Shown: piece by piece, positions 1 to 47,571 of the stretch
How the letters are laid out: the number at the start of each line of letters is the position of its first letter
Numbering within the stretch: position 1 is the first letter of the stretch
Source: Clostridiales bacterium
GTDB taxonomy: Bacteria > Bacillota > Clostridia > Christensenellales > UBA1242
Assembly: GCA_003522085.1 (NCBI GenBank)
Contig: DPGI01000009.1
Coordinates: 151,396-215,395 of the forward strand
Direction of reading: 5' to 3'
DNA length: 64,000 nt
Translations under genes and position numbers: made by a program
The notes under the pieces: model-generated
What the model saw: the letters and a program-made list of their open reading frames with translations, nothing else
Told to the model about the DNA's origin: nothing
Databases searched by the model: none

Positions 1-110
1 GTCTAGTATAAAATTACTATATATATTTACATATTTCGCCCAGATTAAAGGCAAGTTTACTTGACTAAATTTGCAAATTAAGTAAACTAATTAAATAGGA
101 GAAACTTAAA

Positions 111-2840
111 ATGGGGCTTTTTGGAAGCGAAAATAAATCACAAGTAAAAAAATTAAAGAAGATTGCAGACAGGGTTATCGCTCTTGAAGACAAGTTTGCA
201 GCAATGAGCGATGAAGAACTTAAAAACCAAACTACTGTTTTAAAATCACGTCTTTCTGACGGTGAAACGTTGGATGATATTTTGCCGGACGCATATGCAG
301 TTGTTAGAGAAGGTGCTTGGCGTGTTCTTAACATGAAACACTTTTACGTTCAAATTTTGGGCGGGATTGCACTGCACCAAGGTAGAATTGCAGAAATGGC
401 GACAGGTGAAGGAAAGACTTTGGTTGCAACATTGCCGGCGTATTTGAATGCACTTGCTGGAAACGGCGTGCATGTTGTTACAGTCAATGAATACTTGGCA
501 AAACGTGACGCTGAATGGATGGGAAAAGTTTATAAATTTTTAGGGCTCAGTGTTGGTGTTATTGTTTCAAATATGCCTGAAAAATTAAAGAAAAAGGCAT
601 ACGATGCCGACATAACTTACTGCACAAACAACGAACTTGGATTTGACTATCTTCGTGATAATATGGCCGTTTCAAAAGAGCAGCGTATGCAACGCGGACA
701 CGCTTTTGCAATCGTGGACGAAGTCGACTCAATTTTGATTGATGAAGCAAGAACACCACTTATCATTTCTGGTCGTGGCGGAAAAAGCGGCGACGACTAT
801 ATTGCTGCTCAAAAATTTGTAAAAACATTAAAGAAAGACGTTGATGTCGAAATAGATATTAAAACAAAAGAAATCAACCTTACCGAAAGCGGAATTGCAA
901 AGGCTGAAAGATTCTTTCATATTGCAAACCTTTCTGACCTTGAAAACCTTGAACTTAACCACTATATCAACAACGCATTAAAAGCAAACTTCATTATGCT
1001 TAAAGACGACAACTATATCGTCACAAAAGACGGCGAAGTTATGATTGTCGACGAATTTACTGGACGCTTAATGCCGGGAAGAAGATTTAGCGACGGCTTG
1101 CACCAAGCAATCGAAGCAAAAGAAAATGTTGAAATCAAAGATGAAAACAAAACTCTTGCAACAATTACTTTCCAAAATTATTTTCGTCTTTACAAAAAAC
1201 TTTCGGGAATGACGGGAACAGCAAAAACCGAAGAAGCCGAATTTAGAACAATTTACAGTCTTGACGTAGTTACAATTCCACCAAACCTTCCAAACAAAAG
1301 AAAGGACGAAGCGGATATTGTTTACACAACTTACAACGGAAAAATTGCTGCGATTGTTGAAGAAATCAAACGTTGCAAAGAAGTAGGACAACCTGTGCTT
1401 GTCGGAACAATCACTATTGAAAAATCGGAAGAAATTTCAAAAGCATTAAAGAAAGAAAAAATCGCACATGTAGTCTTAAACGCGAAAAATCACGAACAAG
1501 AAAGTGCAATCGTTGCGCAAGCGGGACGCAAAGGTGCAATTACAATCGCAACAAACATGGCCGGCCGTGGAACGGATATTTTGCTTGGTGGAAATGCTGA
1601 GTTTATGGCTAAAAAGAAAATGCAAGACGAAAAATACACTGACGAACAGATTTCATATGCGACTGCATTCAACCATGTTGACGATGAAGAATTAAACAAA
1701 GCGCGCGAAAGATTTAACACACTTTATAAAGAATTTAAAGTTGAAACTGACAAAGAAAAAGAAGAAGTAGTTGCTCTCGGCGGCCTTCATATTATCGGAA
1801 CAGAAAGACATGAATCGCGTCGTATCGACAACCAGTTGCGTGGACGTGCCGCTCGTCAAGGCGACCCTGGTTCAAGCGTGTTCTTCCTTTCACTTGAAGA
1901 CGACCTTTTAAAACGATTTGGTGGCGAAAGATTGCAAAGAATCGCTTTTATGTTTAAAATTGATGAAAAAACACCAATTCAACTTAAAATTCTGACAAGA
2001 CAAATTTCAAATGCTCAAAAGAAAATCGAAATTCAAAACTTCTCGATGAGAAAGAATGTCCTTCAATTCGACGACGTCATGAACGCTCAAAGAACAATTA
2101 TTTATGACGAAAGAAATCGCGTGCTTGACGGGCTTCCTGTGCGTGACCAAATTTTAAATATGTTCCCAGACATTATTTCAAAAATTGTCTACAAAAATCT
2201 TGACGAAGAGCGCCCTTATTATGAATGGGATTTATCGTCAATCAATGCCGATCTTGAAAAGGGCTGGTTTGCACCAGGAAGCAACATTGTCAACGAAAAA
2301 TTTGTAGAAGATTGCGACATCAATGAGGTTGTTGACAAACTATTAAATTTAATCAAAGTCAGATACAACGCTCACATTAAAGAGGCGGAGGAAATCAAAG
2401 TTGATTTTGCCGATGTTGAAAGATTTGTGCTTTTAAGAGTAGTTGATATGAATTGGATGAACCATATTGACGATATGCAAATTTTGAAAAGCGAAATAAT
2501 TTCTCAAGCATTCGGAAATCAAGACCCAGTGCTTGCTTACAAACGCGAAGGTTATGAACTTTTTGAAAAGATGATCGAAAAGATTAAAGAAACAACTTGC
2601 CAATTCTTGCTTGCAAGTCATCTTGAAAAGGAAGAAGCGCCAAAGCCTCCAATGCAAAGACCAACCTTTACACCTATTGCAAGAAAAGAGCCACAACCAG
2701 CACAAGAACAGAAAAAAGAAAGTAAGCCTTTTGTTCAAAAAACAGTTGTCAACGATACTCCAAAAATCGGACGAAATGACCCATGTCCATGCGGCAGCGG
2801 TAAGAAATACAAAAACTGCTGTGGCAAAAATAACACCTAA
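111..2840 (+). CDS. secA: preprotein translocase ATPase SecA
   Basis: 909-aa ORF; Walker A MATGEGKTL, DEAD-like IVDEVDSILIDEARTPLIISG, C-terminal zinc tail CPCGSGKKYKNCCGK; AGGAG SD upstream. Confidence 0.97.
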   Translation: MGLFGSENKSQVKKLKKIADRVIALEDKFAAMSDEELKNQTTVLKSRLSDGETLDDILPDAYAVVREGAWRVLNMKHFYVQILGGIALHQGRIAEMATGEGKTLVATLPAYLNALAGNGVHVVTVNEYLAKRDAEWMGKVYKFLGLSVGVIVSNMPEKLKKKAYDADITYCTNNELGFDYLRDNMAVSKEQRMQRGHAFAIVDEVDSILIDEARTPLIISGRGGKSGDDYIAAQKFVKTLKKDVDVEIDIKTKEINLTESGIAKAERFFHIANLSDLENLELNHYINNALKANFIMLKDDNYIVTKDGEVMIVDEFTGRLMPGRRFSDGLHQAIEAKENVEIKDENKTLATITFQNYFRLYKKLSGMTGTAKTEEAEFRTIYSLDVVTIPPNLPNKRKDEADIVYTTYNGKIAAIVEEIKRCKEVGQPVLVGTITIEKSEEISKALKKEKIAHVVLNAKNHEQESAIVAQAGRKGAITIATNMAGRGTDILLGGNAEFMAKKKMQDEKYTDEQISYATAFNHVDDEELNKARERFNTLYKEFKVETDKEKEEVVALGGLHIIGTERHESRRIDNQLRGRAARQGDPGSSVFFLSLEDDLLKRFGGERLQRIAFMFKIDEKTPIQLKILTRQISNAQKKIEIQNFSMRKNVLQFDDVMNAQRTIIYDERNRVLDGLPVRDQILNMFPDIISKIVYKNLDEERPYYEWDLSSINADLEKGWFAPGSNIVNEKFVEDCDINEVVDKLLNLIKVRYNAHIKEAEEIKVDFADVERFVLLRVVDMNWMNHIDDMQILKSEIISQAFGNQDPVLAYKREGYELFEKMIEKIKETTCQFLLASHLEKEEAPKPPMQRPTFTPIARKEPQPAQEQKKESKPFVQKTVVNDTPKIGRNDPCPCGSGKKYKNCCGKNNT

Positions 2841-36850: not shown

Positions 36851-37438
36851 TTAAATCAACTTTAAATTTTCGTCTTTATCCCAAAAGTTTGTTTTCATAT
36901 CTAAAAAATGCATAATATCATTTTCATCATAAAGGTGGAAGTGACTTAAATCGCAACCAATATTGAAGCCAAAACTTTTATAAATCCCCATAGCGTTGTG
37001 GCTGTGTCCAAAAAGCGTCAACATTGTTTTGCTGTGATTTATTGGCTTGTGTGTAAGATAAAAGGCTCTGTGTTTTATCTTAATTTTATCGTGATATTTC
37101 ACATCAAGATAGCCAAGTTTTAAACAATATTGCCTAAATGCTTCAAAATCATTGTTAAAAAAGTATTTTACAACTCTTTCTTCATTGTTGCCCATAATCA
37201 ATATGATTTTAGAGTTGATTTTTTTTACGATATTTAAACTTTTCTTCCATGTGTCGTTGTCTTTGTTATGGCAATCGACCAAATCTCCAATGACATATAT
37301 AATATCGTTGCCGTCTACTTGGCTGTTCCAAGTTTTTACGAGATATCTTTCAAATTGTTTATAATCTTTGAATGGGCGTTTGTTTAATATAAGGTTATAA
37401 TTGTTGCCAAGATGTAAGTCGCTTGTGAAATAATACAT
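36851..37438 (-). CDS. small metallophosphoesterase (calcineurin-like)
   Basis: 195 aa; SDLHLG, VIGDLVD, MGNNE, GHSH motifs; AGGAGAAAAAC SD. Confidence 0.8.
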   Translation of the reverse strand: MYYFTSDLHLGNNYNLILNKRPFKDYKQFERYLVKTWNSQVDGNDIIYVIGDLVDCHNKDNDTWKKSLNIVKKINSKIILIMGNNEERVVKYFFNNDFEAFRQYCLKLGYLDVKYHDKIKIKHRAFYLTHKPINHSKTMLTLFGHSHNAMGIYKSFGFNIGCDLSHFHLYDENDIMHFLDMKTNFWDKDENLKLI

Positions 37439-37574: not shown

Positions 37575-38381
37575 ATGCAATATCTATTGTTTGTTGACGA
37601 CACTGGATTTAACAAAAATAAAAACTCAAAAAGGCTTAACGACGAAAAAATTTCGATGGTTGGCTGTTTGGTGGCGGTTGATAAAATTCAAGACCTTGCA
37701 AATGAATTAAATTTTCAGCTTAGCGAACTTAAAGAGCTCTACAATGCCGACGAATATCATTTTACTGACATTTGCAATCATAAAAATCAATTTGAAGGCA
37801 TTGACGGTTACGATGCACTTTCAATGATTCAACTGTTTGCTGAAATCATAAAAGAATATGACATAAAAATTGTTACGCAAACAATAACCAGCGAAATGCT
37901 AGAAAAGAAGGGCGACCTTATCGCTGGCGTGGATGCAATTGCGAGAGAATGCGGATTTTCAAGCAAAAGCGAAGCGCAAAAAAACGAAAGCCGCGCGCTT
38001 ATTTTGAATATTTTAGATGCTAAAAAATACGTTGAGTCATTAAGCGGCGACAACGAAATTGCAGCTGTATTTTGCGACGAAGGGTTGAGGAAAAATAACG
38101 CCGAAACAAAAATTAAACTTGGCGGCAAAGATGTTGAAATCGATTTTTGCTCGTCAAAGGAGTTTCCATATTTGCAAATAGCCGATTTTGCGGCATGGGC
38201 GCTTACTAGAAGCAAGTTGAATTTAGAAAAGTCACAGGAAAAAGAGATGAAAGACTTTGATTTGATGACAATGAAAATTTTGGAAGATATAGTGCCAAAC
38301 TACATAAACATCGAAGCCGTTTCAACTAATGCCGGATATGGAATAAACATAGACAAAACTTTTGATGAAATTATTAAATAA
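37575..38381 (+). CDS. DUF3800-family protein
   Basis: 268 aa; N-terminal LLFVDDTG (hhhDESG-like), mid EYHFTDI, C-terminal YLQIADFAAWAL (LQ.AD signature). Confidence 0.65.
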   Translation: MQYLLFVDDTGFNKNKNSKRLNDEKISMVGCLVAVDKIQDLANELNFQLSELKELYNADEYHFTDICNHKNQFEGIDGYDALSMIQLFAEIIKEYDIKIVTQTITSEMLEKKGDLIAGVDAIARECGFSSKSEAQKNESRALILNILDAKKYVESLSGDNEIAAVFCDEGLRKNNAETKIKLGGKDVEIDFCSSKEFPYLQIADFAAWALTRSKLNLEKSQEKEMKDFDLMTMKILEDIVPNYINIEAVSTNAGYGINIDKTFDEIIK

Positions 38382-40012: not shown

Positions 40013-41113
40013 TTAATCTAAAGGTGGAAATCCTGTATAACATTTTTGAGCATTGGCATGTCCTAACACTCTCCCTATTGAAGTAATAGAAAATCCATTT
40101 GGAATTTTATCCCACCAATCGTGTATAACTTTTAATGCAGGAAACGTGTCAAGTTTTTCGTAGAATTTATTTAATACAATATTTTTCTTATCTGCGACTT
40201 TATCATAGAAATCAATAACTTTATAAAGACATTCCTTTTCTTCTTGCGATAAAGGTAAAATAGTGCCATTTGATTGAATTTTATCAAGTTTGTCAATTTC
40301 CGTTGTTTTTGTCAAAGGTAGTCTTACATGATTATCTATAAGTTCGTGGTCAATGAGGATATTTTCTAATCCATAAGGTTTTAATAAATTAATTGCTTTT
40401 TGATAATTTTCAGAGTTTTTATCAATGCCCACGCAAAAATAACCATCAAGATTTTGTAAATAAAATTCTTTTAATTTCTTTAACCTACAAAATGAATTTA
40501 ATCTTATTGCCTTTAAAATATCTAATTGGTCTAACCAATCATTATTATTGGGCAAGTCGCAAATTAAAAGACTTTCAAACAATTTATTCATTACATTTAA
40601 CCCTTCGGTTATATTGCCAGTTATAGGGCATATCCCTATTAAAATTGTAGTAATAACAGTTAGAGCTACAAGGCTTTCATCTGATATTTGTTCTACAATG
40701 TCTACAGCTCCATTAATTCCAATACAGCTTGCCTTATTGTTTTGTTTTTTGTATCTATGAATAAGCAATTCTGATAAGATGTTGTAATCACTTTCTCTTG
40801 TCGTTGTAGCGGCTTGAATTTGGGCTTTTCTATATACTAATTTAAAAGCGGGGTCATTGAAGATTTCTAACGCATTCTCTATTTCTGCTAATTTTGGAAT
40901 AAATCTATTTTCAAAATCATTCATTCTTTTTTGTGCCAACTCATCTGCGTTTGAAAAATATTCTTCCATTATTTGCTTTGCAGAATACTCTGAAATTTGT
41001 TTTGCTTTCTCTTCATCAAATTGAGTAATATGATTATGTACAATAGTTAGATTTTCGCCTTGATAATTATTTGAATTTGCCCCAGAACTAATTTCTTGAT
41101 TTCTTTTTGTCAT
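40013..41113 (-). CDS. hypothetical protein (366 aa from MTKRNQ), island cargo
   Basis: The track ORF 40013..41230 is trimmed to the internal ATG preceded by a GGAGAAAAT SD. No recognisable motif. My character-level reading of the homopolymers near 41105 and 41160 disagrees with the track by compensating 1-nt shifts, so the start has an uncertainty of 1 nt. Confidence 0.6.
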   Translation of the reverse strand: MTKRNQEISSGANSNNYQGENLTIVHNHITQFDEEKAKQISEYSAKQIMEEYFSNADELAQKRMNDFENRFIPKLAEIENALEIFNDPAFKLVYRKAQIQAATTTRESDYNILSELLIHRYKKQNNKASCIGINGAVDIVEQISDESLVALTVITTILIGICPITGNITEGLNVMNKLFESLLICDLPNNNDWLDQLDILKAIRLNSFCRLKKLKEFYLQNLDGYFCVGIDKNSENYQKAINLLKPYGLENILIDHELIDNHVRLPLTKTTEIDKLDKIQSNGTILPLSQEEKECLYKVIDFYDKVADKKNIVLNKFYEKLDTFPALKVIHDWWDKIPNGFSITSIGRVLGHANAQKCYTGFPPLD

Positions 41114-41267
41114 GATTATTTTCTCCGAATTGTATATTGTTGCAATTATCTCCAGACGAAATATTTTGTTTGTTTGTCTGTTTATTATTGTAAATTGATA
41201 TTCCACCGAATATTGCAGAAATAATAGCAAATATTCCGGATATTATTGTGCAAATAATTTCAACCAT
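41088..41267 (-). CDS. small single-TM peptide (about 59 aa) overlapping the start of the downstream ORF
   Basis: MVEIICTIISGIFAIISAIFGGISIYNNKQTNKQN...; AGGAGG SD 7 nt upstream and TGgTATAAT promoter upstream. The 3' end follows the track-consistent frame. If my literal reading is right the ORF stops near 41145 instead. Confidence 0.45.
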   Translation of the reverse strand: MVEIICTIISGIFAIISAIFGGISIYNNKQTNKQNISSGDNCNNIQFGENNHDKKKSRN

Positions 41268-41498: not shown

Positions 41499-41774
41499 TT
41501 TGACAAACTTGCTTGCCAAAGACTTGTTGATATGTTTTTAAATAGAGTTGTTTTGTATGATGACCACTGCGATATTTATTTCAACACAAATGATGATAAA
41601 TCTAAACATCTTAAACTTAAAGAGCAACTAGACTTAGAAAGCGAAATTTTGTTTGAAAACAAAAAGAACACCACTAGTGTTCTTGCGTACCTAAAAAAAG
41701 AGCAATCTAAACTAAAAAGTTCGGATTACTCCCTAATGGCGGGGCTAACAAAGTTCAGATTGAACTATTTTTAA
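41499..41774 (+). pseudogene. possible C-terminal remnant of a large serine recombinase
   Basis: open frame ..LVDMFLNRVVLYDDHCDIYFN.. resembles the fi.kI.vydd..ieI.F tail of large serine recombinases; no catalytic domain upstream. Confidence 0.3.
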
Positions 41775-41900
41775 TCAATGATCATTTACGATTATCGTTT
41801 ATATTAAAACAATTATAAAATATTGTTTGTAATATTTTGTCGAATATATAGAAATTATTAAAATATATGTTATAATGGTGCTATAAAGTGAGGTAAACTT

Positions 41901-44876
41901 ATGAAAAATTTATTTTTTGTTTTAAGCGATATACATATGAGAGAAGATCAATATATTGATAAAAAATATATTAATGGAATTGGAAATGTTTTGAATTCAA
42001 TAGAATGCTTAGATAATGCCTGTGTAATTGTTGCTGGCGATTTAGCTTTTTCTGGAAAGAAAAATGAATATAGAAAAGTTGGAAACTTGTTTGGGCTTAT
42101 TACTAATCAGTTAAAGAAAAAGTTAGGGAAAGAAGATATTATACCATTCTATGTTGTCCCAGGGAATCATGATATTAATTTTGATGGCAATCCTCGCGAA
42201 AGAGTAGATGTAAGAGAATTGCACAATAATGGAACTATTGATAATGAAATTGATACTGAATTAACAAAATTTGGTTCTTTTTACGAGCTTGCAGAGAGAA
42301 ATAGATGTTTTTTGCACAACAAATTGTATAATTATAGATGTTTTGGAACTGGCGAAATTAATACACAAATCAATCTACTTAACTCAGAATTGTTTTCTAC
42401 TTTTATGGATAAAAATGGAGATGATGATAAAGGATTACACTATTTCCCTGAATCAAGTATTTCCAAAATAACAAAACAAAAATGGGCAAACTATACAATA
42501 ACCGTTATGCATCGAAGCCCAGAATGGTTTTCTTGGCAATCTTCACAAAATTTAAAAAATAACTTTTACAGGGCAAGTAATATTTTAATTTGTGGGCACG
42601 AACATTCTTCAGATATTCAAGACATAGAAAAAGAACAAAAAAATCTAATTATGGTAAAGACAGGGATGTTTGATTTTCGTGAAAATAGTTATTCATTCAA
42701 TTTAATCATAATTGACACAGAAAAAAATACATGCGATATAAAATATTATACTTGGAATTCTGAAAGACAAATGTATGTTATAACAACGGAACAAAATGAT
42801 ATAGAACTTAAAGAAATTGTCGTTGATGATTTGTTAAAACCAAACATTAACTTTACAAGAGAATTCCTGACTATAAATAATTATAAAGTAGATGAACTTT
42901 TCGTTTTTCCTGACATTGATAAGATCAATAATCAGCAAGATAAAAATGAAAAAACGATAAAAAATATGGATGAACTCTTTGATTTTGTGAAAGAAAACAA
43001 CATAATATATATTGAAGGTGATGCTATGGCCGGCAAATCTTCTTTAGCAAAATCATTTTATAGTAATAGCATAAAACGAAAGAAGATTCCATTATATATT
43101 GATTTAGATCAAATCAGTAGAAAGAAATATGAAAATATTATTCGAGACGCTTTTTGTGAGCAATATAGCTATAATAGTTTAGACTATGAGAAATTTAAAC
43201 AAACATTAAAAGAAGATAAGGTTGTTATTGTTGATAATCTAGATAAGATTCCTGATAAATTAATTGATGATTTTGTGTGTAATTTAAAATGTGATTTTAA
43301 AAAAGTAATACTTTTATATAAACCTAATGATAAATGTGATATCGTTGAATTAACAAAAAAAAGTTTGAATGATAATGATAAATGTGAAAGATTGAGAATT
43401 TTGCCTTTCTACCTAAGAAAAAGAAAGGAATTGATAAAAAATGTCTTGTGTACTTCAGTAAATAAAGTGGATAATATTGATAATAAAGTTACAGAAATAA
43501 ATAATTTTATTTCAAATCAATTACAAGTTTTCAGTATCAATCCTAATTTTATTACAATGTATGTGTCATATTATGTTGATGATATACACAATGCTGATGT
43601 ACAGACTAATCTGTTTAGTAAAGTATTTGAAACAAATTTAGTTAAATCGTTACAAAAATATATAAGCAATGAAAATATAGAAGAATATTTCACTATTTAT
43701 GAGAACTTAGCATATAAGATACATTTTGAGAAAAAGTATCCAATTTCAATAAATGATATACAGAATGTTATAAAGTCATATAATGATAAATATATGCTAG
43801 AAATTGATTGTGCTGAATTCAGAAAAAATAGTATAAAAGCAAACATTCTAGATGAAATGGATAATGACACTTTTAAATTCTTTGATAATTCATATCTTGC
43901 TTATTTTGTTGCGAGTGCACTAAATAAAAAGGCAAATAATGGACAAAAAATTGATGATGAATTAAGTTGGATATGCACAAATTTGTGCTTTAATATTAAT
44001 GGAGATATATTATTGTTTTTGTCTTACATAACAAAAAATGTCTCCATTTTGGATTATATAATTAAGAGTACAAAAGAGATAATGCAACAATGGACTGAAT
44101 TTGATATTGACAATAACAATATTTCATTTTTAAAATTAAATGCTGAGGAAAAAGTTGAATTGCCAACTAGTGAAGACAAAGAAATCCATGAACAAAACAT
44201 AGAAAAACAGGAAAAAGCAATAAAGAAGAATTTAGAAATAAAAACTAGATCAATATATGATGACTATGATGAAACGAAGTTAGACTCCAAAGCATATAAA
44301 GTAAATCAAGCAATGAGACACTTGGAATTAGTAAGTAAAATTTTACCTAATTTTAATCATCTAATTGAAAAGGATAAGAAACTTGATTTGGCTCGAGGGA
44401 TATATGAATATCCTAATAAGATTTGTAATGAAATTTTACATGAAGTGGATTCGAATTTCAACTATATTTTAAAAGACTTATTGCAATATTGTGAAGAAAA
44501 TAATATTGAAAAAGGTCAAGATAAAATAATAAATCAATTGCAAATACAAGCTGAAATGTTTATATTGAATTTATTTGATATGACTGCGAGATTGTCTACT
44601 ACGACTAAAACCATTAAAGTATTAGACTCTATTGAACTAAGAAGTATTAATAATTCAATTTTAAATGTTATGATGTATGAAAATCTAGGGAACTTCAAAG
44701 AATTTGCAAAACGTGCTGACGATATTTATGACAAATCTAAAAACCCATTAGTAAAAACTATGATAAAAAGAATTGTAAGAAAGCATTTCTTATGTAACAA
44801 AGATTTAAAACAAGTAGGAGATGTTCAAAGAGTTGCGGATAAATATTTTGGACAATCTAGAAAATATTTAAAATAA
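41901..44876 (+). CDS. metallophosphoesterase / NACHT-STAND-like P-loop NTPase / helical C-terminal domain fusion protein (991 aa)
   Basis: MPE motifs SDIH (aa 9-12), GD (46-47), GNHD (88-91), H204, GHEH (232-235); Walker A GDAMAGKS (373-380); Walker B VVIVDNLD (441-448); GAGG SD and TATAAT upstream. Confidence 0.85.
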   Translation: MKNLFFVLSDIHMREDQYIDKKYINGIGNVLNSIECLDNACVIVAGDLAFSGKKNEYRKVGNLFGLITNQLKKKLGKEDIIPFYVVPGNHDINFDGNPRERVDVRELHNNGTIDNEIDTELTKFGSFYELAERNRCFLHNKLYNYRCFGTGEINTQINLLNSELFSTFMDKNGDDDKGLHYFPESSISKITKQKWANYTITVMHRSPEWFSWQSSQNLKNNFYRASNILICGHEHSSDIQDIEKEQKNLIMVKTGMFDFRENSYSFNLIIIDTEKNTCDIKYYTWNSERQMYVITTEQNDIELKEIVVDDLLKPNINFTREFLTINNYKVDELFVFPDIDKINNQQDKNEKTIKNMDELFDFVKENNIIYIEGDAMAGKSSLAKSFYSNSIKRKKIPLYIDLDQISRKKYENIIRDAFCEQYSYNSLDYEKFKQTLKEDKVVIVDNLDKIPDKLIDDFVCNLKCDFKKVILLYKPNDKCDIVELTKKSLNDNDKCERLRILPFYLRKRKELIKNVLCTSVNKVDNIDNKVTEINNFISNQLQVFSINPNFITMYVSYYVDDIHNADVQTNLFSKVFETNLVKSLQKYISNENIEEYFTIYENLAYKIHFEKKYPISINDIQNVIKSYNDKYMLEIDCAEFRKNSIKANILDEMDNDTFKFFDNSYLAYFVASALNKKANNGQKIDDELSWICTNLCFNINGDILLFLSYITKNVSILDYIIKSTKEIMQQWTEFDIDNNNISFLKLNAEEKVELPTSEDKEIHEQNIEKQEKAIKKNLEIKTRSIYDDYDETKLDSKAYKVNQAMRHLELVSKILPNFNHLIEKDKKLDLARGIYEYPNKICNEILHEVDSNFNYILKDLLQYCEENNIEKGQDKIINQLQIQAEMFILNLFDMTARLSTTTKTIKVLDSIELRSINNSILNVMMYENLGNFKEFAKRADDIYDKSKNPLVKTMIKRIVRKHFLCNKDLKQVGDVQRVADKYFGQSRKYLK

Positions 44877-44979
44877 AAAGCAGGCCTGTCGTTTTATCAT
44901 ATAAGATAACGACATAACTCATATGATAGTATGTTAACCTGCCTAATATAGCATATTCATTTACATGAAAATTATGTTA

Positions 44980-45009
44980 AAAGCGAACAATTTTTTGTTC
45001 GCTTTTTTG
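44980..45009 (+). terminator. terminator after the 991-aa gene
   Basis: agcgaacaa/ttgttcgct hairpin followed by T6. Confidence 0.75.
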
Positions 45010-45019
45010 TTTAAAAAAT

Positions 45020-45720
45020 AAAAACCACCAGCTGTGCTGGTGAGAAATGAAAAGCTTAAGCTATGCGTAGACAAAAAATTCCTCCTAAATAAAAATAGTG
45101 TTTGCTGACACGAAAATTAATAATGGGGGGGGATTTTTTGTTTATGAACGAAAATAGTATAGCACATACAAAATGGAATAGCAAATACCATATAGTATTC
45201 ACACCAAAGTATAGAAGAAAAGCAATATACGGAGAATTAAAAAAAGAGATAGGAGCAATATTAAGAGAATTAAGTAATTGGAAAGAAGTAGAAATAATAG
45301 AAGCACACGGATGTGTAGAGCACATACATATGTATGTATCAATACCACCAAAAATGTCAGTTGCCGGTTATGTGGGGTTTCTAAAAGGGAAAAGTACATT
45401 AATAATATATGAAAGGCATTCAAACCTAAAATATAAATACAGCAACAAGCATTTTTGGTGTAGGGGTTACTATGTGGATACAGTAGGAAGAAATGAAAAG
45501 GCAATAGAGGAATATGTAAGGAATCAAGAGAAAGAAGATATTATGAGTGACCAAATAAGTATGAAAGAATACTTAGACCCATTTAAAAAAATTTCTCGTT
45601 ACACACAATGGGTGTGTTATGGGGATTATATAATTGTCTTGTAAAAATCTTTCTCGTTTGACAAAATGGTGATAAAGTGAGATGGATTTTCAATCTTTGG
45701 TTTTTCAAAAGGAATAATTG
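45020..45720 (+). mobile_element. IS200/IS605-family insertion sequence (boundaries approximate)
   Basis: contains tnpA; subterminal hairpin caccagc-tgt-gctggtg at 45026-45042. The right end was not defined. Confidence 0.6.
45144..45644 (+). CDS. tnpA: IS200/IS605-family Y1 transposase TnpA
   Basis: HTKWNSKYHIVFTPKYRRK, HUH motif EHIHMYVSIPPK, catalytic Tyr region GYYVDTVG. Confidence 0.92.
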   Translation: MNENSIAHTKWNSKYHIVFTPKYRRKAIYGELKKEIGAILRELSNWKEVEIIEAHGCVEHIHMYVSIPPKMSVAGYVGFLKGKSTLIIYERHSNLKYKYSNKHFWCRGYYVDTVGRNEKAIEEYVRNQEKEDIMSDQISMKEYLDPFKKISRYTQWVCYGDYIIVL

Positions 45721-45793: not shown

Positions 45794-45886
45794 TGGCGGA
45801 GACGGTGGGATTCGAACCCACGTGCCCGGGTTAGCGGACAACTTGATTTCGAGTCAAGCTCGGTGCGACCACTTCGATACGTCTCC
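45794..45886 (-). tRNA. tRNA-Ser (anticodon CGA), CCA encoded
   Basis: manual cloverleaf: acceptor GGAGACG/CGTCTCC, 3-bp D stem, anticodon stem CTTGA/TCAAG with loop CTCGAAA, long variable arm, T arm GTGGG-TTCGAAT-CCCAC, GCCA end. Confidence 0.9.
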
Positions 45887-45933: not shown

Positions 45934-46183
45934 CTCTTCTGATTAATTATTTTTTTCACATTAACCTAACAGTAAATAGCTAAAGCAAAGCTTGCATTAC
46001 TCCCGATATTAAATGCGGAGTGAAAACAAAATGCAACATATATTGTGATGTTGTTTTGTTCGTTTCACTCACAAATCTATTTGCCTGCTGCAAATAGGTT
46101 GCAAGCAACACCATCACAATATGTATTATCATCAGTTGCTGGCAAGTATCCCTACGGGCTGTTTGCCGACAACTTCCGATAAT

Positions 46184-46339
46184 ATAAGCGAAGCGAAAAC
46201 AAGAAGAAAAAGCAAAGCTTGCGTTACAACGTAACATAAGCGAAGCGAAAACAAGAAGTAGTAACAAAGCTTGTATGGCTACGCAACATAAAGCGAAGAG
46301 AGAAACGCTGAAAAACATAAAGAAGGGAGGAAGAAACAG
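46184..46339 (+). repeat. 52-nt-period tandem repeat (3 units starting at 46184, 46236 and 46288)
   Basis: perfect 23-nt core ATAAGCGAAGCGAAAACAAGAAG at 46184 and 46236; a degenerate third unit, ATAAAGCGAAGAGAGAAACG, starts exactly where the 83-nt inverted repeat begins. Confidence 0.75.
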
Positions 46340-46370
46340 GGCGAGGGCCCGAAAAACGGAGGTTTCTTAT
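46288..46370 (+). repeat. 83-nt leader, left arm of a perfect inverted repeat
   Basis: identical to the reverse complement of 47290-47372 (checked base by base); contains a GGAGG SD. Confidence 0.9.
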
Positions 46371-46371
46371 A

Positions 46372-46728
46372 ATGAAAATGCTTAATTTTATATCTATGTT
46401 GGGTAATGCATGGGAAAAAGCCCTAAAAAATAAGGAAGGCAAGACATATGCGGGTTATGAATGGCTGGTTGACCTTTTTAAATATCTTAGCCCAATTTTA
46501 TACGCAATCTTAGCAGTAGTTGGTGCGGCTGGTGTGATTTACTCAATTGTTCTGGGTGTTAACCTTGCAAAAGCGGAAGACCAGTCAAAACGTGACGAAG
46601 CAAAGAAAAGATTAATTACAACAATTATTGCCGTAGCTGTTACAGTAGTGCTGATCATTTTCTTTAACGAACTGCTTCCTCTTATTGTAGGTGCAGTTGC
46701 TAAACCTGGCGATATACCTGGAGCTTAA
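46372..46728 (+). CDS. small two-TM membrane protein, paralog A (pilin/VirB2-like topology, tentative)
   Basis: 118 aa. The core ILYAILAVVGAAGVIYSIVLGVNLAKAEDQSKRDEAKKRLITTIIAVAVTVVLIIFFNEL is shared with paralog B; the N- and C-terminal parts diverge. Confidence 0.75.
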   Translation: MKMLNFISMLGNAWEKALKNKEGKTYAGYEWLVDLFKYLSPILYAILAVVGAAGVIYSIVLGVNLAKAEDQSKRDEAKKRLITTIIAVAVTVVLIIFFNELLPLIVGAVAKPGDIPGA

Positions 46729-46742
46729 TTAAAATATAAACA

Positions 46743-46796
46743 AAATAAATCTCTAAAAAATTAATTAATAAATTAAAATTTTTTAGAGATTTATTT
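46743..46796. terminator. 20-bp perfect hairpin between the convergent paralogs
   Basis: aaataaatctctaaaaaatt / aattttttagagatttattt with a 14-nt loop. Confidence 0.7.
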
Positions 46797-46876
46797 TATT
46801 AAATGTCGAAATTTGAGAAACGTCTTTCCTAAGAATTGATAGGAAAAATGAATTGCATTTAATAAGTCACGCGCGC

Positions 46877-46909
46877 AAAAAAACGACCCGTTCGGGTCGT
46901 CTATTTTTT
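46877..46909. terminator. bidirectional terminator
   Basis: acgacccg-tt-cgggtcgt hairpin flanked by A7 and T6. Confidence 0.75.
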
Positions 46910-46922
46910 ATATGTTAAATTA

Positions 46923-47291
46923 TTACATATGGATGAAGCCGGTATTTTTATGATTTGGTAAATTACCACTATTGTTACCGCCGACAGCTTTGATGATCAT
47001 AGGGAATAATTCATTGAAGAAAATAATCAAAACAACAGTAACAGCAACTGCAATAATTGTTGTAATCAATCTTTTCTTTGCTTCGTCACGTTTTGATTGG
47101 TCTTCCGCTTTTGCAAGGTTAACACCCAGAACAATTGAGTAAATCACACCAGCGGCTCCAACTACAGCCATGATAGCGTAAAGGATAGGTCCAAGATATT
47201 CATATACTTGTGCAACCCAGTGTAAATCAGATTCGGCTGGGAAATTTGTGTTCCAATCATAACCTAACATCGAAGAAATAAAATTTAACAT
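46923..47291 (-). CDS. small two-TM membrane protein, paralog B
   Basis: 122 aa. It has the same core as paralog A. The central ~115 nt are nearly identical at the DNA level, whereas the flanks differ. Confidence 0.75.
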   Translation of the reverse strand: MLNFISSMLGYDWNTNFPAESDLHWVAQVYEYLGPILYAIMAVVGAAGVIYSIVLGVNLAKAEDQSKRDEAKKRLITTIIAVAVTVVLIIFFNELFPMIIKAVGGNNSGNLPNHKNTGFIHM

Positions 47292-47372
47292 AAGAAACCT
47301 CCGTTTTTCGGGCCCTCGCCCTGTTTCTTCCTCCCTTCTTTATGTTTTTCAGCGTTTCTCTCTTCGCTTTAT
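47290..47372 (-). repeat. 83-nt leader, right arm of the perfect inverted repeat
   Basis: reverse complement of 46288-46370. Confidence 0.9.
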
Positions 47373-47571
47373 ATTAAAAAAGGTTGAAAGTTTTTTTGTT
47401 TTAATTAAATTAAAACTTTTAAATAATATTTGTAAAAAATAACTTTCTATGCGAACTATTTATTTACAAGATAATAGTAGCATAAAAAAATTTTTATGTA
47501 AAATGATTTTACATATTTTTTTAAAAATTTTTAAAAAATTTTATTTTTCTTTTTTTACCTATTTTTTCCGC

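Follow-up and report, generated by a model that had tools for sequence, protein, structure and literature searches.

What does a single AT-rich gene that joins a phosphoesterase to a nucleotide-binding switch do in an uncultured gut Clostridia bacterium? The question arises from a stretch of 64,000 nucleotides (nt) of contig DPGI01000009.1 (assembly GCA_003522085.1, positions 151,396 to 215,395 of the forward strand), hereafter the window. Its plus strand carries an open reading frame (ORF) at 41901-44876, stop codon included, which starts with ATG and is translated without an internal stop into a protein of 991 amino acids (aa). A preliminary description, made from the sequence alone, had read this protein as an intact metallophosphoesterase fused to a NACHT/STAND-like NTPase and a long helical tail, and had proposed an undescribed one-gene anti-phage system. 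The ORF and all the motif coordinates given there proved exact, as did the K/N/I-rich composition of the protein and the AT-richness of the gene, which has a GC content of 25.7% vs 36.2% across the window and lies inside a low-GC patch at ~40.0-45.7 kb. Our analysis indicates, with high confidence, that the gene is a divergent Clostridia (Bacillota) member of the DS-8 family with a defence role. The system is not a new one: its architecture was listed in 2022 among bacterial NACHT fusions and later validated as DS-8, for which there is a dedicated NCBIfam model.

DS-8 was discovered, along with other systems, by means of DefensePredictor (bioRxiv 2025.01.08.631726, January 2025; Science 2026, PMC13092281). 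It consists of a single Escherichia coli protein (WP_032203427.1, 1014 aa, working name 'MNAC') with metallophosphatase and NACHT domains, which protected strain MG1655 against phages (PMC13092281). Defence was abolished by the substitutions D52A and N84A, which affect catalytic residues of the phosphatase, or by K375A, which affects the NACHT ATPase residue. Its authors tie the phosphatase to SMPDL3A/B on the basis of HHpred and structure, and state its substrate as unknown (PMC13092281). A literature search for later mechanistic work on DS-8 found none.

The relation of the window protein to DS-8 extends over nearly its full length. The NCBIfam model NF053861 (DS8_antiphage) aligns aa 8-967 with profile positions 2-979 of 994 (E 3.6e-113), and hence covers the C-terminal domain up to aa 967. 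For the direct sequence comparison with the E. coli protein we used its first 399 aa, as given in a table of the paper. BLASTP with this fragment gave an alignment (24% identity, E 3e-23) that runs collinearly from residue 1 up to the Walker A motif and pairs D52, N84 and K375 of DS-8 with D47, N89 and K379 of the window protein. In a family alignment of 97 sequences, from which all conservation figures given here are taken, D47 and N89 are present in every sequence and K379 in 96 of the 97. Moreover, an hhalign comparison of these 97 sequences of the window protein's clade with seven sequences of the DS-8 clade gave a probability of 100% (E 2.8e-51, 632 columns), and the nSTAND_NTPase4 signature of the window protein recurs at the corresponding place in one protein of the DS-8 clade. 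A homolog search with the 399-aa fragment of DS-8 returned proteins of 688 aa or less. The idea that effector, NACHT/STAND module and helical C-terminus form one anti-phage polypeptide is thus supported by full-length homology to DS-8, the protein in which the activity was shown.

Both proteins are single polypeptides of ~1000 aa (1014 vs 991) in which a metallophosphatase at the N-terminus is followed by a NACHT-like P-loop NTPase and then by a helical C-terminus, an order that Pfam and the AlphaFold2 model confirm for the window protein; they are collinear over nearly their full length, keep the three residues that were mutated in DS-8 and are encoded by monocistronic genes. They differ in that identity over the first 400 aa is only ~24%, and in that DS-8 comes from E. 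coli whereas the window gene belongs to an uncultured gut Clostridia bacterium. In addition, the nearest solved phosphoesterase folds of the window member are GpdQ, Lmo2642 and Rv0805, ahead of SMPDL3A.

The N-terminal domain, the predicted effector, has an intact active site. The Pfam model Metallophos (PF00149) matches aa 5-236 (E 2.2e-11, 45 bits vs a cut-off of 21.5), and the five motifs D-x-H, G-D, G-N-H-[DE], H and G-H-x-H are present in canonical order with all ligands of the binuclear site kept. A separate model of aa 1-315 reached a predicted local distance difference test (pLDDT) score of 93.1 and a predicted template modelling score (pTM) of 0.92. Motifs, Pfam score and modelled fold, the last also by Foldseek, all bear out the intact metallophosphoesterase that had been read from the sequence. 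When this model was compared with the Protein Data Bank (PDB) by Foldseek, the best match was chain B of 9a6c, an integrative model of Bacillus subtilis YydD-YydB (E 1.8e-17, query-based TM-score TMq 0.69, root-mean-square deviation 4.0, 325 columns). It was followed by GpdQ (E 1.6e-10), Lmo2642 (E 1.8e-10), which we take to be a cyclic-nucleotide phosphodiesterase, Rv0805 (E 4e-10) and purple acid phosphatase (E 4.7e-10). SMPDL3B, acid sphingomyelinase and SMPDL3A came next (E 5e-9 to 6e-8; TMq 0.55-0.59 for SMPDL3A/B), and 5'-nucleotidases and Vps29 were ranked lower. A search of PDB sequences with the family profile also placed GpdQ, Lmo2642 and Rv0805 among the best 60 of 81 matches (E<=1). 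The PDB sequence file that was searched does not contain 9a6c.

The central part of the protein is predicted to fold as a NACHT-type STAND module. This assignment rests on the AlphaFold2 model of the full-length protein (mean pLDDT 87.6, pTM 0.66), because Foldseek with this model returned the NACHT modules of nucleotide-binding leucine-rich repeat (NLR) proteins: NLRC4 (E 8.9e-9, 569 columns), NAIP5 (2.3e-8), NLRP3 (4.8e-8) and NOD2 (2.3e-7), in alignments that span 450-590 columns. Avs4 was a weaker match (E 4.8e-5), and the top match of the full-length model was again 9a6c chain B. The TM-scores of the NLR and Avs4 matches are low (0.2-0.4) because the compared models hold several domains. 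The claim of a P-loop switch akin to that of NLR proteins is consequently upheld by modelling and fold comparison. The preliminary description had also assigned the last ~500 aa to a helical sensor tail with no recognisable motif. The first ~240 aa of this stretch (aa ~500-740) correspond to the helical and winged-helix domains of the STAND module, include the nSTAND_NTPase4 signature and form the most conserved stretch of the protein, so that only ~250 aa remain as a separate C-terminal domain. In this domain no Pfam match and no repeats were found. Its mean pairwise identity is 0.28, vs 0.30-0.36 in the other regions, and with a dN/dS of 0.06-0.15 it is neither hypervariable nor under diversifying selection.

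The window protein belongs to a large family. A word-indexed search returned 160 homologs, nearly all of them 970-1030 aa long with the same domains, the named ones being from Clostridiales and [Clostridium] innocuum. An exhaustive profile search gave 2348 representatives (at 50% identity) at E<=1e-30, single-domain matches included; each of the best 150 scored >700 bits, and the matches are mostly full-length. The closest genomes are metagenome-assembled genomes of uncultured Clostridia (Bacillota), and a search for the loci of relatives, seeded with a 13-sequence alignment, found full-length relatives also in Dorea, Eubacterium, Lachnospiraceae, Tissierella and Oscillospiraceae, and in Anaerolineaceae at 21% identity. 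Besides D47 and N89, the residues G46, V86-P-G-N-H-D91 (which includes N89), H204, W209, G232, H233, H235, G378, D445 and R508 are invariant in the alignment; H12 is found in 96, D10 in 95 and D448 in 67 of the 97 sequences. Comparison with homologs that are 97%, 89% and 73% identical yielded an overall dN/dS of 0.05-0.10, with no domain standing out. The gene is under purifying selection. No alternative effectors fused to the same NTPase were found among the relatives, the truncated-looking matches being fragments or split genes. One split copy (locus L055, 5251-8220), located beside an integrase, consists of a 217-aa phosphoesterase ORF followed by a 739-aa ORF for the NTPase and C-terminal parts that is 75% identical to the window protein. 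This copy is probably a frameshifted pseudogene or an assembly error, and splits of this type explain the matches annotated as 'ATP-binding protein' that have no phosphoesterase domain.

The gene and its own upstream region behave as a mobile cassette. Comparison of the window with the loci of four homologs by blastn showed that the common stretch is confined to the gene and its immediate borders. The alignment covers 41737-44956 at 85% nucleotide identity for the 89% homolog (loci L005/L024, Candidatus Caccovivens faecavium), 41755-44956 at 76% for the 73% homolog (L017) and 41899-44942 at 70% for the 60% homolog (L010). For the 97% homolog (L016) it covers 41734-45589 at 92%, and there the shared stretch runs through the IS200 element that lies downstream in the window. 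We draw this conclusion because only 41737-44956 is common to the homolog loci and the flanks are unrelated, failing to align between the window and any of the four. The cassette occurs in at least five unrelated contexts; an identical protein is encoded on 11 metagenomic contigs from several samples, with the same neighbourhood as in the window. The neighbouring IS200 transposase noticed at the outset was confirmed by Pfam and NCBIfam (Table 1). The recombinase remnant upstream of the gene finds weak support in two short tblastn alignments to C-terminal parts of the large serine recombinases that precede the 89% homolog, one of 41535-41591 with recombinase aa 453-471 (47% identity, E 0.002) and one of 41732-41812 with the last 27 aa of the recombinase (56% identity, E 7e-6), both obtained in a very small search space. 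In loci L005 and L006, an intact large serine recombinase ends 82 nt before the homologous gene. As for the tRNA-Ser island that had been proposed, the adjoining tRNA gene is real and its 3' end faces the low-GC patch. An island targeted to this tRNA with att sites did not find support: no att-like repeat of the tRNA 3' end was found within the window, nor were there convincing flanking direct repeats. Searches of plasmids by megablast and of phages by tblastn gave no match; tblastn of plasmids gave five distant matches only, at ~23% identity, in Clostridium botulinum, Paenisporosarcina and Jeotgalibaca.

Examination of the homologs' neighbourhoods, which the preliminary description had proposed as a check, revealed defence or mobile-element genes in 8/8 other contexts, with no conserved synteny. 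The 89% homolog is accompanied by GmrSD, a DUF4011/AAA_11/AAA_12 helicase, two large serine recombinases and a pair formed by a NUDIX gene and a phospholipase D (PLD)-type helicase gene, and the 73% homolog by an SLFN-g3-type helicase, a DUF4011 helicase, NUDIX and MazE. Around the 60% homolog lie a KAP NTPase, an Eco57I-like gene, a Bsp6I restriction-modification system, conjugation genes and an integrase; around the 38% homolog, Fic, a TIR/SEFIR protein and a type I restriction-modification system. The more distant contexts include two at 32-33% identity, one with SieB and inovirus-like genes and one at a prophage end beside an Mrr-like gene, as well as one at 29% (an AAA_21 protein, IS elements and a helicase) and one at 28% (a type I restriction-modification system, an integrase and a relaxase). 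No cyclase or other nucleotide-signalling gene is conserved beside the homologs in the contexts examined, which argues against a dedicated signalling pair. A separate observation concerns the NUDIX and PLD genes. In L005 (13284-16795; also in L006-L009), a NUDIX hydrolase gene is followed by a gene for a ~1038-aa PLD-nuclease/helicase/DUF3427 protein. The pair lies directly 3' of the 89% homolog in five contigs, the position taken by IS200 in the window, and another NUDIX gene is found near the 73% homolog (L051, 2259-2762), beside the DUF4011 helicase. The NUDIX and PLD-nuclease/helicase genes may represent a separate two-gene defence module.

How might such a protein act? We think it rather probable that the product of this 3.2-kb mobile cassette is a member of the DS-8 family, an anti-phage STAND (NACHT-like) protein made as a single polypeptide, and that it works in the following way. 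At rest, the protein would be a monomer kept inactive with bound nucleotide. The C-terminal helical domain, together with the winged-helix region, would sense a cue arising from infection, and the P-loop module (K379, D445/D448, R508) would then bind or exchange nucleoside triphosphate, leading to oligomerisation. This step would bring the N-terminal binuclear metallophosphoesterase domains together and activate them, and the activated domains would hydrolyse a phosphodiester or phosphoanhydride substrate. Nucleotide pools or a nucleotide cofactor would be depleted, in the manner of class III cyclic nucleoside monophosphate (cNMP) phosphodiesterases, GpdQ and SMPDL3A, and phage replication would stop, probably at the cost of the infected cell. 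Here we infer the trigger, the oligomerisation, the substrate and the abortive infection, and the oligomerisation route is borrowed from STAND/NLR proteins. That the substrate is a nucleotide-type small molecule, nucleic acid being less likely, we judge to be close to evenly balanced. A small molecule is favoured because the nearest relatives in sequence and fold are small-molecule phosphodiesterases and nothing nuclease-specific was seen.

The same STAND switch could also control a nuclease resembling Mre11/SbcD or the Pseudomonas putida MPE, which would degrade phage DNA, host DNA or both, as nuclease effectors do in many Avs and bNACHT proteins. In bacterial STAND proteins the effector is most often a nuclease (Kibby et al. 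2022/2023), and a nuclease would offer a simple killing route to a one-gene system that has no partner cyclase. Mre11 is in fact a significant Foldseek match, both of the domain (E 1.5e-7, TMq 0.43) and of the full-length model, but it ranks under ~28 phosphodiesterase, phosphatase and nucleotidase chains. Neither Mre11 nor SbcD is among the best 60 of the 81 profile matches in the PDB, where GpdQ, Lmo2642 and Rv0805 are found. Across the family, motif II reads GD[IL]A[FY]SG and presumably lacks the histidine of the GDLFH motif that we take to be typical of Mre11. No capping or DNA-binding domain is evident either, and we regard a nuclease effector as unlikely. A further proposal, put forward by the authors of DS-8, is that the effector degrades a signal: a phosphodiesterase similar to SMPDL3A acting on cyclic GMP-AMP (cGAMP) would remove a cyclic or linear nucleotide messenger that the phage needs or induces, and no bulk metabolite would be depleted. 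Their link to SMPDL3A/B by HHpred and structure (PMC13092281) has a counterpart here in the significant matches to both proteins. Moreover, the cyclic-nucleotide phosphodiesterase Rv0805 is among the best-ranked solved bacterial matches, and calcineurin-like phosphoesterases have been listed under 'nucleotide-signal-generating/degrading' effectors (Kibby et al. 2022/2023). Nevertheless, DS-8 is a single gene that worked in E. coli MG1655 without a cognate cyclase (PMC13092281), no cyclase or nucleotide-signalling gene is conserved beside the homologs examined, and removal of a signal alone does not stop a phage. Signal degradation thus appears quite improbable to us.

It could also be argued that the protein has no defence role and serves housekeeping or repair as a phosphoesterase-ATPase, or that the gene is decaying on a dead mobile element and currently has no function. 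The IS200 element and the recombinase remnant adjoin the gene, split copies exist in other genomes, and PADLOC recognises no defence neighbour of the window copy. However, the ORF is intact, the identical protein recurs on 11 contigs from several samples, and the dN/dS of 0.05-0.10 goes together with retention of all catalytic residues. Synteny is not conserved, defence or mobile-element genes are neighbours in all eight other contexts, and the homology to the experimentally validated DS-8 is full-length. Such a reading is very improbable, and its housekeeping or repair form was rejected on the grounds of non-conserved synteny, mobile-cassette behaviour and homology to DS-8.

Several results weigh against a DS-8-like anti-phage switch that depletes nucleotides. 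The score on the DS8_antiphage model, 379.2 bits, is under half of the 790-bit equivalog cut-off. Nine 1014-aa representatives of the window protein's clade score 322-386 bits on the same model, and all the 1014-aa representatives scanned fall in this clade. Because the window protein and the nine representatives all remain below 790 bits, their clade is best placed as a sister clade of the curated DS-8 equivalogs, and the window protein, judged by these profile scores, as a homolog and not an equivalog. In addition, anti-phage activity was shown for the E. coli protein only, whereas the window protein's clade is known from sequence and models. The Pfam NACHT model (PF05729) matches aa 369-454 with 16.8 bits, under its cut-off of 26.7. 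A C-terminal domain that is not hypervariable and has no repeats is atypical of many pattern-recognition sensors, which leaves the sensing step of the proposed mechanism unsupported. The choice of substrate is likewise weak, since the metallophosphoesterase fold is promiscuous and the Foldseek gaps are small: phosphodiesterases and nucleases are separated by a few orders of magnitude in E-value, at TM-scores of 0.4-0.6. Finally, in PADLOC-DB v2.0.0 (2023), which predates DS-8, the 991-aa protein matched 0 families at E<=1 and ten of its neighbours gave no meaningful match. The context in the window is itself no recognisable defence island, at variance with the defence-enriched surroundings that had been suggested.

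Comparison with other known systems places the protein at some distance from each of them. The phosphoesterase domain (aa 5-169) matches positions 196-358 of the NCBIfam model NF053862 (DS9_1_antiphage; E 4.5e-11), and DS-9A resembles the window protein in having a related phosphoesterase domain. As in DS-8, the catalytic residues of DS-9A are needed for defence (PMC13092281). Nonetheless, the match is limited to the N-terminal half of the domain, and DS-9A, which lacks a STAND NTPase, acts together with a HAD phosphatase in the two-gene system DS-9. Regarding bacterial NACHT (bNACHT) and Avs proteins, the window protein shares with them an effector, a STAND NTPase and a C-terminal region in one polypeptide, and its fold matches NLR NACHT modules and, more weakly, Avs4. 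Calcineurin-like phosphoesterases were listed in 2022 among the N-terminal effector fusions of bNACHT proteins (Kibby et al. 2022/2023). Walker A, required in bNACHT01 and DS-8 (Kibby et al. 2022/2023; PMC13092281), is intact here, and the short non-repeat C-terminus recalls the bNACHT01-type clade (Kibby et al. 2022/2023). Unlike the SNaCT domain of bNACHT01, described as rapidly diversifying (Kibby et al. 2022/2023), this C-terminus is not hypervariable. The window protein matches no PADLOC Avs or bNACHT model, and its winged-helix region corresponds to Pfam nSTAND_NTPase4 while Pfam NACHT stays under threshold. Avs1-4 carry TPR-type sensor arrays, whereas Pfam finds no repeat family in the window protein.

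Among enzymes, the group of class III cNMP phosphodiesterases, GpdQ and Lmo2642 and the mammalian SMPDL3A/B proteins are the closest solved structures to the effector domain in fold (Foldseek E 1.6e-10 to 6e-8, TMq 0.46-0.59) and also its best matches by sequence profile. At 11-16% identity, however, substrate specificity is not transferable over such a distance. These enzymes are free-standing or secreted and have no NTPase switch, and the window domain differs from them by a helical insertion at aa ~100-135 and an extra C-terminal beta-sheet extension at aa 263-302. Chain B of 9a6c (481 residues; one of YydD/YydB), which matches the effector domain far better in structure than any phosphoesterase crystal structure does, is 17% identical and is a separate protein complexed with a second protein, with no STAND fusion. 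The model hints at a related phosphoesterase in B. subtilis that acts together with a distinct partner. Literature searches on YydB/YydD function and on Lamassu with metallophosphoesterase effectors found nothing, and the text of a 2026 Nature survey of STAND proteins does not mention phosphoesterase effectors.

With these results the DS-8 family, validated experimentally in E. coli, gains a large and divergent clade in gut Clostridia. The gene travels as a self-contained 3.2-kb cassette, and the residues mutated in DS-8 are kept across the family. Both the substrate of the phosphoesterase and the cue sensed by the conserved C-terminal domain are questions for the whole family and not special to the window. 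Coming from a Gram-positive background, the window copy makes a reasonable second test case, and no new kind of system. The remaining novelty lies in this family-wide substrate and trigger and in the unexplained strong likeness of the effector to 9a6c chain B. More tentatively, and with considerable doubt, the Clostridia clade might have an undocumented immune chemistry, for instance depletion of a nucleotide or cofactor pool after sensing of a conserved phage component or a host perturbation, and its phosphoesterase module might be shared with DS-9A and 9a6c chain B. If such a common module existed, it would define a broader class of phosphoesterase effectors paired with different switches.

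The features of the gene and its surroundings are collected in Table 1. Promoter-like sites were no more numerous in the consensus scan than in shuffled sequence, and terminator-like sites numbered 5 in the region vs 0.7 expected.

Table 1. Features of the DS-8-like gene, its product and adjoining elements in the window.
Feature	Protein position (aa)	Window position (nt)	Strand	Basis or remark
Large serine recombinase 3' remnant (probable), frame broken, catalytic part absent		41532..41815	+	tblastn
Mobile single-gene cassette, 3.2 kb		41737..44956	+	blastn; gene with ~165 nt 5' and ~80 nt 3'
Promoter-like site TAGAAA-16 nt-TATAAT with extended TG		41849..41876	+	Consensus scan; ~25 nt 5' of start codon
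Ribosome-binding site GAGG		41890-41893	+	Consensus-level, read from sequence; 7 nt before ATG
Metallophosphoesterase domain, alpha/beta sandwich, predicted effector	1-305	41901..42815	+	Pfam PF00149, AlphaFold2, Foldseek
Motif SDIH	9-12			Metallophosphoesterase motif, position exact
Motif GD	46-47			Metallophosphoesterase motif, position exact
Motif GNHD	88-91			Metallophosphoesterase motif, position exact
Motif VMHRSPEW with H204	202-209			Metallophosphoesterase motif, position exact
Motif GHEH	232-235			Metallophosphoesterase motif, position exact
P-loop nucleotide-binding alpha/beta domain	355-500	42963..43400	+	Walker A/B, weak Pfam NACHT/AAA_14, Foldseek
Walker A GDAMAGKS	373-380	43017-43040		Position exact; fits GxxxxGK[ST]
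Walker B VVIVDNLD	441-448	43221-43244		Position exact; fits hhhhD[DGN]xD
Helical and winged-helix domains of the predicted STAND module, including R508	501-740	43401..44120	+	Pfam PF24406, model, Foldseek
nSTAND_NTPase4 signature (PF24406)	613-670	43737-43910	+	36.3 bits vs cut-off 27
C-terminal all-helical domain, presumed sensor/regulatory	741-991	44121..44873	+	Model, pLDDT mostly 85-95
Intrinsic-terminator-like hairpin followed by T run		44979..45006	+	Consensus scan; ~100 nt past stop codon
IS200/IS605-family transposase gene		45102..45644	+	Pfam Y1_Tnp E 2.2e-34; NCBIfam transpos_IS200 E 3.7e-39
tRNA-Ser(CGA)		45794..45886	-	ARAGORN

Around the gene in the window lie genes for an LPO_1073/Vpar_1526-family protein (opposite strand), a DUF3800 protein, a GNAT acetyltransferase and a small phosphoesterase, together with core genes. 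The LPO_1073/Vpar_1526-family gene (40013-41230, minus strand; NF045477, E 3.4e-26) lies in the same low-GC patch, with ~28% GC, and is divergent from the DS-8-like gene. It may also be horizontally acquired cargo; a literature search on LPO_1073/Vpar_1526 returned nothing relevant. The interval from the tRNA(U5)-methyltransferase gene to the low-GC patch contains the DUF3800 gene (37575-38381, plus strand) and a small stand-alone metallophosphoesterase gene (36851-37438, minus strand). The latter encodes 194 aa, is YfcE/LpxH-like at weak scores and is unrelated to the effector domain.

On the other side, the segment from the tRNA-Ser gene to the first of two pilin-like genes (45980-46290) is rich in repeats. 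It contains a 52-nt tandem direct repeat at 46180-46283 (81% identity), a 19-nt repeat at 45982 and 46209, and a 112-aa ORF on the minus strand with no meaningful family match (NCBIfam E 0.006, far below threshold). The two pilin-like genes (46372-46728, plus strand; 46923-47291, minus strand) are convergent and form an inverted duplication within 46285-47375. Their products, 68% identical to each other, gave matches to the Mbov_0395-family conjugal-transfer pilin and to Pfam T4SS_pilin; further conjugation genes were not found near the pair. An inverted repeat of 86 nt (99% identity) is formed by the upstream parts and a repeat of 205 nt (86%) by the coding parts, an arrangement that could allow inversion or gene conversion between the copies.

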